This document shows, piece after piece, positions 8,531 to 31,300 of a stretch of DNA of 64,000 nt (position 1 is its first letter; every line of letters starts with the position of its first letter). Source of the DNA: Euglena gracilis (Eukaryota); NCBI GenBank assembly GCA_039621445.1, contig CP154954.1, positions 17,452,589-17,516,588 on the forward strand, given 5' to 3'. Both the position numbers and the translations under genes were made by a program. Below the pieces are notes generated by a model. The model did no database searches, was not told the DNA's origin, and saw only the letters and a list, made by a program, of their open reading frames with translations.

Positions 8531-11112
8531 TCTCTCTCTCTCTCTCTCTCTCTCTCTCTTCTTGATTGGTATGGACGAGGAATTCTAGGAATGGGTGGCG
8601 GTGGGTGGGGATGGGAGGGGATGGGAGGGAGGTGGGGGGGTGCCGCAGAGGGGGGAGGCCTCGCACGGTTTTCACGCCCACCTCCAGCCGGTGCGGCCCG
8701 AACTGGAGGGCCGGAGATACCAGCTCCGGCAGGCCGGGGGTGGCACACCTGCGATGTCGCCGCCTCCGCGTCCGTGCTGGTCATGGTCTCCTTCTGCCGC
8801 CGCTGCCGCCGCCGCCCGCCGCGACGATGGCCTTGAAGGGGATCCCACGGGTTGGGATGAGAGGGGATCGGAGGGGGGCCGGCCCTTGCCTCCCTCTCTC
8901 TCTCTCTCTCCCCTCCGCGGTGGTCTCGATGTGGTTGGGGGCTCCGACTCCCCCGACAGTGGCGTTGAGCTTGACATTTTTCCTGCAGCTTCTTCAGCTC
9001 CGCGCTCAGGGCGGAGATGGTGTCCGCCATTCTCTTGATCTCCTTGTGCAGGGCAGCCCCTCGCCTGCTCTGCACCGGCGTCCATACGTCGCCTTCTTCT
9101 CTTCTGCCTCTTGCTTCATCACGGGGTTGGTTGCCCTGCGCACTCCCAGGGCGAGAGGGTCTTGTAGATCTCATGGCGCTTGAACTTTGTGATTCCCCAG
9201 GGCGGTGCCCACGGGTCGATTCCCTGTTGGGTCGCCAAGGGGCTTGGGGCCGGGGCAAATCCCGCTTCGCTTGCTCCCCTGCGGACGGGGTTGGCGGGGC
9301 ACAGGCACCACGCTGCCTGCCACCCGCCCGGACTTGGCTCGGTCTCGCTCCGGGGACGTGGCTCCCAGAGGGTTGGTGGCCCTGGGGGGGGCCGTGGGGG
9401 TGGCGCCTTGGACCGGGGTGGTCGGCCTCCCCGATCCTGGCACCTTCATGCCAGTCGTGCGTCTGGCGCTCGAGGTCCGCGGGGCGCTCGACGTTCTGGG
9501 CTGCTGCGGCTTCTTGCCATTCTTGGATGATGCTCCGCCGCTGGGGGCCGCACGAGGCCCAGACCTGGTTCTGCAGGTCCGGGTCCCATGATTCGTACAT
9601 GGCTTGTCCTCGTCCTGCTTGTCGTGGGTCCTTCAGCACCGCCTTCCACTCTTCGTACTTGGCTCGCCACTCGGCAGGCCACTCACTCAACGAAGTGAAC
9701 TTCCTCTTCTTCGTGGGGCCTTGGGAAGAGGTGTCGTCGTCGGTGGTGTCGCTGGGTGGCGGCGGGGGAGCGGTGAGGAGGAGGCGGTTGGGGGCCTCGA
9801 TGGCGGGAATGGGGAGACCTTGGAGGAGGGCCAAGGAAGACGAGGAGGAGGAGGAGGGGCCGATGGTGAGGGTGTGGAGATGCACATTCTGCACGATGGA
9901 GGGGGGTTGTGGCGGGGAGGGTGGGGGGTAGTGGGGGTTGGGTGCCCGGGCCTCCACGGGGACGGGGACGGGCATGGGGACCCGGACCTCCACGGGGACT
10001 TGCACGGGGACCGGGACGACCCGCTCGATGACCCGATCCACGAAGACAGGCTCCCGCACGGGAACGGGGACCTGCCTCTCGACGATGACGACCCGCTCCT
10101 GGAGGACCTCACGGGTGGGTGGGGGGAGGCATGGGGTTGGGGAGGCGGAGTCCGGGTTGGAGAGAGGGGGGCCTTGGGAGGCTGTGGGGGCCGTTGGGGC
10201 GCTGGGGGATTGGGAGGCGGTGCTTGGCTGCGCTGCAACCCCCTCGAGGGCGTCCGTCTCTGTCTCCATGGCCGTGGGCTGGCAACTCTCAGGCCCGCCC
10301 GGGCTCCCCGGGGGCGAGATCCTTGGCGGCGTCACCCCCGGTTCACCGCCCAGCGTAAACCCCGCTCCGGTGTGGGCCAGCCTGTCGCTTGGGGCGTCCC
10401 CCCTCGGCTCTGAGGCCGGTCCTGGCAGCACGATCACGGACCCGCCCGGGCTCCCTGGGGCTGAGATCCTTGGCGGCGTCACCCCCAGTTCACAGCCCGA
10501 CGTAAACCCCGTCACGGTGTGGGCCAGTCCGTGGCTCGGGGCGTCCCCCTCGCTGTCCTCAGGCCCGCCCGGGCTCCCCGGGGGCGAGATCCTTGGCGGC
10601 GTCACCCCCGGTTCACCGCCCAGCGTAAACCCCGCCCCGGTGTGGGCCGGCCTGGTGCTGCGGCTGTTTGGGGCGTCCCCCTCCTCTTGACTGATTGGTA
10701 GAGGCTCGCCCGGGCTCGCCGGGGGCGGGATCCTTGGCGGCATCACCCCCGGGTCCTTGCCCTTGCTGCTCACGAATTGGGCGCACCTCACCTCTGGGGC
10801 GTCCCCCTCTCTGAGCCCTGGCCAGTGGACGGATCGGGACGCTCCTCTCGGGGCCTGCTGCTTGCCGTGGCGCACGTGGGCCTCCCGGTCGATGATCATC
10901 ACATCCACGTCGGAGGCCTGGGAGGCGGAGGGGGAAGGGGGCGGCATCATCTCGGCCAGCAAGTCGTCGATGCCCCCGGGGAGGGGGGCGGGGTGGCCGA
11001 AGACGGAGAGAAAGTCGGCCTGGGAGGGGGCATGGGCCTCATCGAGGGGGAGGGCTGTGGCCCATGGGGCTGGGGGAGCGCGGTGGGGGCTGGAGTGGAG
11101 CCACTTCCACAC
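8531..11112 (-). CDS. PLE post-RT extension: Pro-rich repeats, PVPV repeat, Trp-rich helical module, 2A-like motif, coiled coil; no stop inside the element
   Basis: Part of the 912-aa open frame 8374..11112; copy B shows WKWLHSSPH is in frame with RT; blocks EWPAEWR, WDxxLQxQVWA, HDWxEGxRIGEAxxPGP and NPWxPLQ are conserved in the divergent family 2 element. Confidence 0.7.
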
Positions 11113-28307: not shown

Positions 28308-31300
28308 CGCCAGACGCATGACTGGCATGAAGGTGCCAGGATCGGGGAGGCCGACCACCCCGGTCCAAGGCGCCACCCCCACGGCCCCCACCAGGGCCAC
28401 CAACCCTCCGGGAGCCACGTCCCCGGAGTGAGACCGAGCCAAGTCCGGGCGGGTGGCAGGCAGCGTGGTGCCTGTGCCCCGCCAACCCCGTCCGCAGGGG
28501 AGCAAGCGAAGCGGGATTTGCCCCGGCCCCAAGCCCCTTGGCGACCCAACAGGGAAGCGGCCCGTGGGCGCCGCCCTGGGGATTCTTTTTCTTCAGCAGC
28601 CATGAGATCTTCTAGACCCTCTCGCCCTGGGAGTGCGCAGGGCAACCCAACCCGAGGAGAAGAAAGAGACCGAAGAGACGAAGGTGTCGCATGGACACCG
28701 GTGCAGAGCCGGCGAGGGGCGGCGCTGCACAAGGAGATCAAGAGGATGGCGGACAGCATCTCCGCCCTCAGCGAAGAGCTGAAGAAGCTACAAGAAAAAT
28801 GCCAAGCTCAACGCCACTTTCGGGGGGAGTCGGAGCCCCCAACCACATCAAGACCATCGCGGAGAGGAGAGAGAGAGAGAGAGAGGGAGGCAAGGGCCGG
28901 CCCCCCTCCGATCCCCTCTCATCCCAACCCATGGGATCCCCTTCAAGGCCATCGTCGCGGCGGACGGCGTCGGCAACGGCGGCAGAAGGAGACCATGACC
29001 AGCACGGACGCCGAGGCGGCGACATCGCAGGTGTGCCACCCCCGGCCTGCCGGAGCTGGTATCTCCGGCCCTCCAGTTCGGGCCGCACCGGCTGGAGGTG
29101 GGCGTGCAACCCGTGCGAGGCCTCCCCCCTCTGCGGCACCCCCCCACCTCCCTCCCCATCCCCTCCCATCCCCACCCCCACCCACACCCAGAATCCCCCG
29201 TCCATACCAATCAAGAAGAGAGAGAGAGAGAGAGAAAATGAGGTTTGGTGAGGTCAGCTTTTTTGATTCAGTGAGAGTTTTTGAGTAACCCCCCTAAAAT
29301 AATGTACACCCTCTGCCCCAGACTTCGGTGACAAAACAACATACCCTCCCTGCCGCCACTGGGAGAGGGAAATCAAGCAGGTTTGTCAATCTCTCTCCAA
29401 AACATCATATTTTGGCAAAAAATGACTGGTAGGTTCAATTCCTTTACAAAACCAAAAAGGTAACAATGAATTCTAATTCACAGAATAAACCCCACATAAA
29501 AAAATTAAAAATTGATTTTTCAAAAAAAAACGAAATATACAAAAAATGAAAAATTGCCAAATAGGCAAGAATATGAACAATTGCGCAAAACAATGGATAA
29601 ACATGGAACATTTGAGGGGAAATGTGACTTTTGCCATCTCCAGTGCATAGCACTAGGAGAAATTTTTCGTGGTTATGTCTTTCAGTCAAGGAGGGAAGGA
29701 GGGGGAGCTCCAGAGCCACCTCCCAACACCTGGGGTGGTGATCCGGACACCCCCCGCCACCACTTTGACCCCTCGGGAGGGTCGGGATCCCCACTCCAAC
29801 CATCCTCACTCACTACCCTACTCACCACCTTCCAGAATGCTGAAGGGCTTCCTGTCGATCCCGGGGGGGGGGGGGGTGGTTGGGACCCGAACTCGCTGCC
29901 TGGCCTCCTTCTGTGTAGTGTGTAGGAAGCGGATTTGTCCTTCCCCTTCGGGAATTTGTCCCTTCTGGTAGTGCCTGCAAAAAAAGGGACGTGCAGAGCC
30001 TTACGCTTCCTGTGTACCTCCTGGCACGGCTGGTGTTCAGTTCACCAAGTTCTTAGACAGCCGGGAATGCATTTTTCTTGTTGAGTCACAAAATTCTGGC
30101 AGTTTTTTTTGAAAATGCGCATCCGCGCATTTCGGAAGCGAAGTGCGCAGGTGCGCATTCTGAATGGTTTGATGCCTCTTCCAGACTGGGGCTAAACACC
30201 ACAAAAATGAGCTGTTTGGATTTAACACGACCACAGAGGTTCACTGTTGTTTACTGGTTCAGGACACCGGTTCGGGAGGGAAAGACCCCAAATGAAAAGT
30301 GCCAAAAGGTGTGCAAAATGCTTTGTGGACATGTGGCACAGAAAAGGCAGAACGGAAAAAATTACTGGGATTATCGGCAAGTTTCTTTTGTGATGTGCTT
30401 GTGCCTGACTCATGGTCTCAAGGGCCTGGGGAAAGTTTGGGGCAAGGACTGACCAGTGGTGTTCGCTTCTTTGAGTCCATTTGGATTGTGAAATAATTCC
30501 GTGTTCACAGACCGTTTTTGGGAATGATGCTAAAGGTGGCGACAGGGGTGTTTCACTCTCGAGGTGCCAACCCAGTGAGCACCGTGTGTGGAACCAGACA
30601 CAATCCCGTGTGCTAATTGTGGGGCACAGTGCTCCTTGCACCGTGCACCGCAGCCCAACGTAAGGCAGTTCAGGGGGCCCATCAGCTGCGTGCTGCCATG
30701 CATGCTCTGGGGCGCGGGGTCAGACAACGTTGGCATCAACCGGCCCATCACCTCCGCCGGGTGGGGGACGGTTGCACGTGCGTTGTGGCGTGTTTCACGT
30801 GTTCATGAGAGTAGTGTAAGCTAGGCTGGGCACTGGATTGCAGTGGGCGAAGTGGAATGCGCAAGTGCACATTCTGATTTGTTCGGTGACTTGCCCTGCA
30901 GGGGGCAGTTACCTTGTCACTGAAGGACATGAATTCGTGCCTTGACACCTGGCATCGCCGAGAACAGGGATTTCCACGCCGTTGTAGGTGTCGCGTTTCA
31001 GGGTGTGGTCTGATATAGCGACATTGTTACCAAGGGTGATTTTTTTGATTCACCTCCCCCTCGCACACCCATGTTCTGCAAGCCCGAAAGCCACACCATA
31101 GCGGTGCACAACTCAGATTCAAGGCAGGCAAACAACAGGCCATACCCAGTGCGTCCTTCAACATCAATGTGCGTGTGCGCATTCCCTCCTTCCCACAGCC
31201 TGTGTCCATTCCAAAACAAATGCGCACCTGCGCATTTTTTTGGGTTTGACACTCGGTGGCACCCCTATTGACCTTGGGATTGGGAGGGCTGTGTCTCTAT

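Follow-up and report, generated by a model that had tools for sequence, protein, structure and literature searches.

To our knowledge, no class of eukaryotic retroelements is understood less well than Penelope-like elements (PLEs), and the reason for their constant arrangement in partial tandems is still unsettled. We analyzed a 64,000-nucleotide stretch of Euglena gracilis DNA (assembly GCA_039621445.1, contig CP154954.1, positions 17,452,589 to 17,516,588 of the forward strand; hereafter the window, numbered from its first letter) that carries PLEs of two families, referred to as family 1 (copies A and B) and family 2. The element region has a G+C content of 62–70%, versus 45–55% in the surrounding DNA, and the sense strand of the elements is G+C-rich (67–71%) and poor in T (5–14%). 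The subject of this work is the reading frame of these elements, which continues without a stop up to the 3' end of the unit and, where a second unit or part of one follows, across the boundary between the two. The elements are laid out as follows.

12943 to 8542, minus strand: copy A of family 1, 5'-truncated and beginning within the CxC/reverse transcriptase (RT) N-terminal region; its 3' end at 8542 adjoins (GA)n.
16861 (approximately) to 22045, plus strand: the family 2 copy, 5'-truncated and followed by (GA)n at 22046–22154.
22841 to 23174, plus strand: pseudo-long terminal repeat (pseudo-LTR) of copy B, 334 nt, which duplicates the last 334 nt of the unit and is preceded by (GA)n at 22768–22838.
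23175 to 29223, plus strand: body of copy B, comprising leader, GIY-YIG, CxC, RT, extension, 2A-like site and a basic C-terminal region up to the 3' end.

Judged from their sequences, the elements are Chlamys-type PLEs (N-terminal GIY-YIG endonuclease (EN), CxC, RT) in which the whole unit appears to be coding. The GIY-YIG core (23558–23671) lies N-terminal to the RT within the one open reading frame (ORF) of copy B and matched the Pfam family with E = 0.002 and 18.8 bits, under the cut-off of 22.6. RVT_1 was matched by family 2 (32.3 bits), and the RT core of copy B, which is frameshifted, gave no Pfam match. A CxC motif was found by inspection between EN and RT (LEGCQCH in copy B, CNCH and CTCH in the related proteins P0004 and P0005). 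The modules follow in the order leader, EN, RT, a fast-evolving extension with VPVxVER repeats, an EWPAEW...HDWxEG domain, a 2A-like ...PGP motif and a basic, largely disordered region, which contains coiled-coil and zinc-ribbon-like motifs and is stop-free to the 3' terminus. Hallmarks of PLEs are present, namely the 334-nt pseudo-LTR of copy B, 5' truncation of copy A and family 2, and (GA)n at every end. The true 3' end of copy B is at 29223, since 29224–29234 is (GA)n. Copies A and B are 98% identical in alignment, with ten indels between them.

The original prediction, made from the letters of the window, held that family 1 reads through its whole unit and over the junction between the 3' end of one unit and the 5' end of the next (23174/23175 in copy B). 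We found copy B open in a single frame from 22637 to 26638, a span that includes ...PRIPRPYQSRR, the junction, EISAVPAARG, GIY-YIG and RT, as predicted. Copy A is stop-free from WKWLHSSPH to the same ...PRIPRPYQSRR and on into the flank (11355 to 8374, minus strand, 993 aa); the other two sense frames over that stretch contain 20 and 19 stops. The remaining interruptions follow from the alignment of the copies and were confirmed with contigs of four public sequencing runs; three of them are insertions.

11180 to 11183, minus strand: CTTC insertion private to copy A, shifting the frame within the RT thumb.
26259 to 26262, plus strand: CACC insertion private to copy B, shifting the frame; absent in contigs of other runs.
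27779 to 28306, plus strand: a 528-bp miniature inverted-repeat transposable element (MITE) within copy B, with terminal inverted repeats, an 8–9-bp target-site duplication and a G-run.

At the point where copy A carries CTTC, copy B and family 2 read through ...SVWSRFLFQRWH... (conserved as ...SVWSRFLFQRW...). In the RT core of copy B, two compensating deletions coincide with 5 + 1 extra bases in other copies among the run contigs. The only in-frame stops of copy B (27978 and 28239) are carried by the 528-bp segment, which is a separate high-copy MITE because sequencing depth there is 50–400 times that of the neighbouring element. We also considered the converse, that this segment is original and holds the true stop while copy A is a deletion derivative; the inverted ends, the duplicated target, the depth and the fact that contigs of runs X15, X16 and X1 skip the segment led us to reject this. 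The distance from the pseudo-LTR to its 3' copy is 6049 nt, and 6049 – 4 – 528 = 5517 = 3 × 1839. With CACC and the MITE removed, copy B contains 0 stops in 1954 codons, versus 32 and 19 off-frame, in agreement with the claim that the bridged unit is a stop-free multiple of three. In copy B, G+C at the third codon position is 0.8–0.96 between roughly position 23240 and the 2A-like site, and weaker beyond it. Family 2 is likewise open through its (GA)n end to 22188, but it is 5'-truncated and reaches that end only after one frame change: its RT is in frame 1 and its later modules are in frame 0, with the switch between about 19560 and 19780.

Long open frames may arise by chance in G+C-rich, T-poor sequence, a caveat already attached to the original prediction. 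The base composition of the sense strand is of this kind, and ORFs of 150–320 aa occur in other frames too. Shuffling of residues, nevertheless, yielded zero stops with a probability of 0.003 for copy A and 0.004 for family 2. We then turned to relatives. A metagenome scan with the RT thumb returned 23 loci (L-numbered) with 39–72% identity in that region, low-G+C families included. Another scan, with the EWPAEW domain, gave 558 pattern matches and 0 confirmed loci; a word-index search with residues 150–420 of L006 gave no match, and one with the copy A ORF gave three matches, each covering 8–11% of the query. Across window elements and relatives, 12 segments were examined that begin at the 2A-like site or the ORF1 stop and extend to the 3' end, junction or leader; the proposed frame was free of stops in all 12, as against 1–41 stops in other frames. 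By frame, the counts were 0/20/41 in L012 (52% G+C), 0/5/36 in L015 (44% G+C), 0/11/13 in L004 and 0/8/12 in L006; L012 and L003 run stop-free into a terminal (TG)n. The shuffle probability was below 0.0005 for relatives at 44–62% G+C (0/2000 for L004, L006, L012 and L015). Given these shuffles, the recurrence of the pattern at 44–52% G+C and the excess of synonymous substitutions described below, we regard composition as a barely credible explanation. The caveat was therefore right about the composition, and chance is disfavoured as the source of the frames. Judged by these relatives, the observation extends beyond the window copies to a clade.

Selection was assessed from the ratio of non-synonymous to synonymous differences per site (pN/pS), computed on nucleotide alignments in all three frames over the same ungapped blocks; protein-guided dN/dS was set aside as alignment-biased, and a tblastx comparison of family 1 with family 2 was dominated by low-complexity matches. 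Between copies A and B, the RT has 20 synonymous and 3 non-synonymous differences (pN/pS 0.05); they are not dead sister copies. The constraint that the original prediction looked for in the post-RT region and at the junction was seen in three places. The last 290 nt, which form the pseudo-LTR sequence, differ between A and B by 6 synonymous and 2 non-synonymous changes (0.13), and neither other frame has any synonymous change. In the post-2A block, which is more diverged, the counts were 18.7:25.3 (0.44, versus 1.92 and 0.88 off-frame). Between L004 and L005, the ratio for the part between the junction and the EPYDKH block was 0.47 in frame, versus 1.48 and 1.19 off-frame. Two further comparisons, given with the points against our interpretation, lacked such a signal. 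In-frame BLOSUM scores exceeded same-register off-frame scores for 4 tested pairs. The run contigs yielded 264 between-copy variants, and the best-supported 40 were examined, of which 2 lie upstream of the element and were left out; among the resulting 38 in-element variants, 28 are synonymous, 10 are non-synonymous (2 of them within the locally shifted stretch of copy B) and 0 create a stop. Three of the synonymous variants in this best-supported set fall in the leader, upstream of the first ATG in the body of copy B.

Downstream of the RT and the VPVxVER repeats lies a conserved domain (...EWPAEWR..YE..K...W..LQxQVWA...HDWxEG) that is 48% identical between families 1 and 2. In copies A and B and in family 2 it ends in a motif resembling 2A ribosome-skipping peptides.

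9409 to 9438, minus strand: 2A-like site RIGEADHPGP of copy A, at the end of the conserved EWPAEW...HDWxEG domain.
28338 to 28367, plus strand: 2A-like site RIGEADHPGP of copy B.
20535 to 20564, plus strand: first 2A-like site of family 2, RIGEAKQPGP.
20976 to 21005, plus strand: second, duplicated 2A-like site of family 2, RIGEAKNPGP, within an internal duplication.

Relatives carry motifs at the same place: DLTxDGDVHPNPGP in L006 and L012, DGDIHPNPGP in L015, RIGEADNPGP in L011 and RIGEAKTPGP in L009. The available portion of PMC3708506 gives the canonical 2A signature as GD(V/I)ExNPGP, with the glutamate often substituted in retroelements, and reports that an N-to-H change lowers skipping. 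The GD(V/I)HPNPGP of L006, L012 and L015 matches this signature except for E to H. A recoding-type motif, as originally proposed, is present once per unit at a conserved place and is near-canonical in three relatives; its activity is predicted from the sequence.

The same boundary takes a second form. Nine loci reach at least 1.3 kb past the RT thumb; 5 have a ...PGP site, and 4 (L001 and L013, which are one family, L003 and L004) have a stop there. In these stop families an ATG lies 1–35 nt upstream of the stop in the +1 frame (in L001 the two form ATGA), and the +1 frame runs on through the junction into the next EN-RT. The unit length of this stop/restart form, measured from L001/L005, is 5380 = 3n + 1; the units of L004 and L003 are presumably also 3n + 1. 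The "endless" frame of the original prediction hence describes family 1 and its PGP-bearing relatives, and does not hold for three sister families (L001/L005/L013, L003 and L004), which have a real stop and a +1 continuation, with a 3n + 1 unit measured for L001/L005. That two architectures, 2A-like and stop/restart, occupy the same place argues that the boundary would separate two products. A Ulp1-type protease was considered for the post-2A protein of L012 and rejected, as no Pfam family matched at E ≤ 1.

Canonical 2A motifs also occur elsewhere in the window. A different retroelement (49695–53369, minus strand) has a 1224-aa open frame with an RVT_1 match (E = 2.3e-12), a Cys/His-rich C-terminus and, near its N-terminus (52956–53030), the motif ...LTSGDVEANPGP. 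Another, ...LLACGDVESNPGP, is at 32165–32239 (minus strand), not within any frame of at least 130 aa, and may be a fragment of another element.

We next considered continuity across the junction. Junction positions in relatives were taken from the L013 tandem of truncated units, the terminal microsatellite of L012, and the divergence of P0007 and P0043 from L004 after ...NPYEM and ...NPNGM, respectively. The junction was open in the downstream GIY-YIG frame in 7 of 7 junction-bearing DNA sequences (copy B, L001, L005, L004, L006, L008 and L015; six lineages), and this phase was kept although the 3' regions vary in length among the seven. When the 922-aa junction-spanning ORF of L004 was searched against 1.84 billion representative proteins, 334 matches were obtained at E ≤ 0.001; five of 23 representative proteins examined (P0019, P0021, P0023, P0128 and P0136) combine motifs of the 3' region, the leader and GIY-YIG within a single ORF. 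P0007 and P0043 extend into flanking DNA by 22 and 11 residues, respectively, before they end. Contigs of the RNA runs contained no joint spanning the junction, which carries no weight either way. One RNA contig end at 23238 was considered as a splice acceptor and rejected, the loose letters being just a diverged copy of the same leader.

Potential start codons lie on either side of the junction in other families. Copy B has an in-frame ATG in its pseudo-LTR at about 22946 (KETMTSTD). In L004-like families the last codon of the unit is itself ATG (L004 3058–3060; ...NPYEM|, ...NPNGM| and ...NPKEM; P0007, P0043 and P0078), so an upstream copy could donate the start codon for the EN-RT frame of the next unit.

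Two relatives showed arrangements that have both already been described for PLEs: in L009 (3400–5661), an inverted PLE fragment that matches L018 in reverse comes after the 3' end, and L013 consists of 5'-truncated units repeated in tandem with a period of 2307 nt.

Close to the junction we noted a conserved hairpin, which is shared with a non-coding array next to copy A.

23193 to 23212, plus strand: 8-bp hairpin with a GCUU-type loop, 19–38 nt past the junction.
12944 to about 16100, plus strand: five head-to-tail copies of a 660-bp non-coding unit, with (GA)n at the array end.

The hairpin is kept in copy B, the 660-bp array, L004, L005, L006 and L008. Altogether, pairing holds in 47 of 48 cells, and both partners have changed in 6 of 8 pairs. 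The covariation score was reached by 0 of 500 shuffles; slid controls pair at 29–50%. The array units are spaced by 660, 661, 660 and 651 nt, and each contains a 131-nt homologue (73–76% identity) of the family 1 3'-end/leader junction, hairpin included. The array and family 1 share only this junction segment. By its sequence the array is likely a non-autonomous PLE derivative, and since the shared part is the junction segment, it fits the non-autonomous head-to-tail relatives of Chlamys elements in the account given by PMC8557442, as far as that text is available. Its minus strand has exactly one stop per unit, which we take as chance. A hairpin next to the junction that is common to a non-autonomous array is a candidate recognition site for the RT.

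How might such a unit be expressed? We consider it probable that an RNA longer than the unit, derived from tandem or pseudo-LTR copies, is translated across the junction and its product divided once per unit. The 3' terminus, which would be the start point of reverse transcription, would lie inside coding sequence, just upstream of the conserved hairpin. In a tandem or pseudo-LTR arrangement the frame would carry on into the next unit, and RNAs longer than one unit, the published PLE template, would be translated across the junction. The chain would be divided once per unit by ribosome skipping at the 2A-like site or, in the sister families, at a stop overlapped by a restart ATG. The available sections of PMC11167929 propose that PLE mRNA is multi-copy and that reverse transcription begins internally, and those of PMC8557442 place the transcription start site in the pseudo-LTR.

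A more conventional expression would also account for part of the data. An AUG at the junction or shortly past it would serve as the start codon, translation would in effect end at the 2A-like site or stop, and the open 3' frame would be a passive, untranslated by-product. AUGs do lie near the junction in relatives; P0004 begins with Met (MPPPQ) where copy B has AGG (23252–23254, 78 nt past the junction), and the L004-type unit ends in ATG, with P0007 and P0043 diverging right past it. However, the 3' region shows coding-type substitution (the 6:2 ratio and pN/pS of 0.44 above) and has 0 stops even at 44–52% G+C, and the junction phase, expected to be kept in about 1 in 3 independent lineages, was kept in 7 of 7. 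Moreover, L006 lacks any Met between the 2A site and a point some 30 codons short of the junction; ribosomes could thus reach its conserved post-2A motifs only by reading through the 2A site. We therefore judge a passive 3' frame unlikely.

Several observations nonetheless weigh against translation across the junction with division at the 2A-like site. First, none of the copies is intact by itself, and one or more frame corrections are required in each of A, B, family 2, L006, L012 and L015. Second, 16 of the 150 matches listed for the L004 ORF begin within 25 residues of the EPYDKH block (protein sequences only), so that translation may begin past the junction in many copies. Conservation at the junction may in part be due to the hairpin. 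Third, the 2A-like motifs of the window are non-canonical and lack GD(V/I)E; family 1 has HPGP, and NPGP occurs in family 2 only in RIGEAKNPGP, RIGEAKQPGP being off consensus. Fourth, the selection signal is uneven. The family 1 extension between RT and the conserved domain shows no clear constraint between A and B (pN/pS 0.84), no amino acid-level signal was seen post-2A between L004 and L009 in nucleotide alignment (1.19), BLOSUM frame scores do not discriminate in-frame from off-frame for L012/L015, and the post-2A similarity of family 1 to family 2 is not above that of shuffles. The post-2A protein matched no Pfam family at E ≤ 1, and the Atlas model of P0007 has a pLDDT of 0.38 and no usable feature match. 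Lastly, the final protein made from a pseudo-LTR-plus-body RNA would have no stop codon, and we have no explanation for this lack.

The original prediction had envisaged a circular or multimeric RNA. The multimeric template agrees with the published PLE model (PMC11167929, in the part available), and it is the circle that fared poorly. A covalently circular RNA translated in a rolling manner, with one product per lap released at the 2A-like site, would suit the stop-free 3n unit of family 1 and its single 2A-like site; head-to-tail arrays exist (the 660-bp array, and L013 with its 2307-nt period), and retrozymes, non-autonomous derivatives of PLEs, are thought to move by a rolling-circle route according to the accessible text of 10.64898/2026.07.22.740005. 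By contrast, no hammerhead or other self-cleaving ribozyme family matched in Rfam at E ≤ 1 in positions 8000–30000 of the window (22 kb) or in 10 relative loci, and canonical hammerhead ribozymes are reported as lacking in Chlamys elements in PMC8557442. The junction is present in the DNA, which makes a junction-spanning RNA uninformative on circularity, no RNA evidence for a circle was found in the run contigs, and the sister families have a stop and a 3n + 1 unit. A circle is neither needed nor supported, and we hold it to be very improbable.

Circular RNAs with an endless ORF are known from a small viral satellite RNA and from engineered circular RNAs, in which a stop-free 3n unit permits repeated laps. 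The unit described here differs in its length of 5.5 kb, in that there is no evidence of a circle and in that no ribozyme was found. A stronger version of our interpretation combines a frame closed over the whole unit, a tandem or circular RNA read lap after lap, and a StopGo site that frees one EN-RT polyprotein each lap. The gene would then be circularly permuted relative to the mobile unit and expressed only from a unit-plus arrangement, and the mature protein would begin in the 3' region of one unit and end in the next. We put forward this combination only tentatively, as a possibility that we doubt more than we favour.

The surroundings of the elements contain further repeats. The tract between the 660-bp array and family 2 (16135–16860, plus strand) is purine-rich, G-rich and of low complexity (GC skew 0.33, AT skew 0.46), and (GA)n blocks within the cluster include one at 22366–22420 besides those at 22046–22154 and 22768–22838. 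Because of these several (GA)n blocks, the cluster as a whole appears to have arisen by nested insertion into (GA)n.

If true, a gene that spans the ends of its own unit would explain the partial tandems of PLEs directly, as a single unit cannot encode the complete product. Within the literature searched, the motif would have no precedent as a 2A-type site in a PLE, and its alternation with stop/restart would provide a natural example of a single boundary at which 2A skipping and stop-restart have replaced one another in evolution. Our searches found no paper joining "Penelope-like" with "2A-like", and two large 2A surveys lacked the word "Penelope"; the published Chlamys consensi (PMC8557442) may still bear on this.

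Among known systems, the Chlamys clade, as set out in the accessible parts of PMC8557442, is the closest. It shares the N-terminal GIY-YIG, CxC linker and RT, a pseudo-LTR from partial tandem insertion, 5' truncation, microsatellite targets, no canonical hammerhead, a length of 3.3–8.2 kb and non-autonomous relatives in head-to-tail arrays. The targets in that account are (CA)n or (C)n, whereas here they are (GA)n or, at the ends of L012 and L003, (TG)n. The Chlamys ORFs described there have non-coding flanks, and in Chlamys-3_cRei a 5'-UTR (untranslated region) intron spans the boundary between pseudo-LTR and body; here that boundary is coding and in phase. The elements described here further differ in having no stop before the 3' end and in carrying a 2A-like site, although the published consensi might already show the same.

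The 2A-like sites of non-LTR retrotransposons, in the portion of PMC3708506 available, share ...NPGP inside a retroelement ORF, with N-to-H variants in L1Tc. Those sites are mostly N-terminal in the proteins of APE-type long interspersed elements, whereas here the site is downstream of the RT in a PLE and alternates with stop/restart.

The Poseidon element PAc of Anolis, as presented in the available text of PMC11167929, offers a parallel: its template is proposed to be an mRNA of several copies, reverse transcription starts internally at a stem-loop 111–118 nt into the ORF, and the unit end hence falls within coding sequence. The first 172 nt of that ORF also contain a protein-binding motif. 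With such a proposed template and an internal stem-loop start, one would expect the "end" of a unit to fall at any arbitrary point inside a multimeric RNA. PAc differs in its C-terminal EN, in a non-coding pseudo-LTR with a hammerhead, and in a defined start and stop. Unlike in PAc, the terminus here precedes the hairpin by ~20 nt and the unit appears to be coding throughout; what is new is that the unit end lies within a continuous coding sequence.

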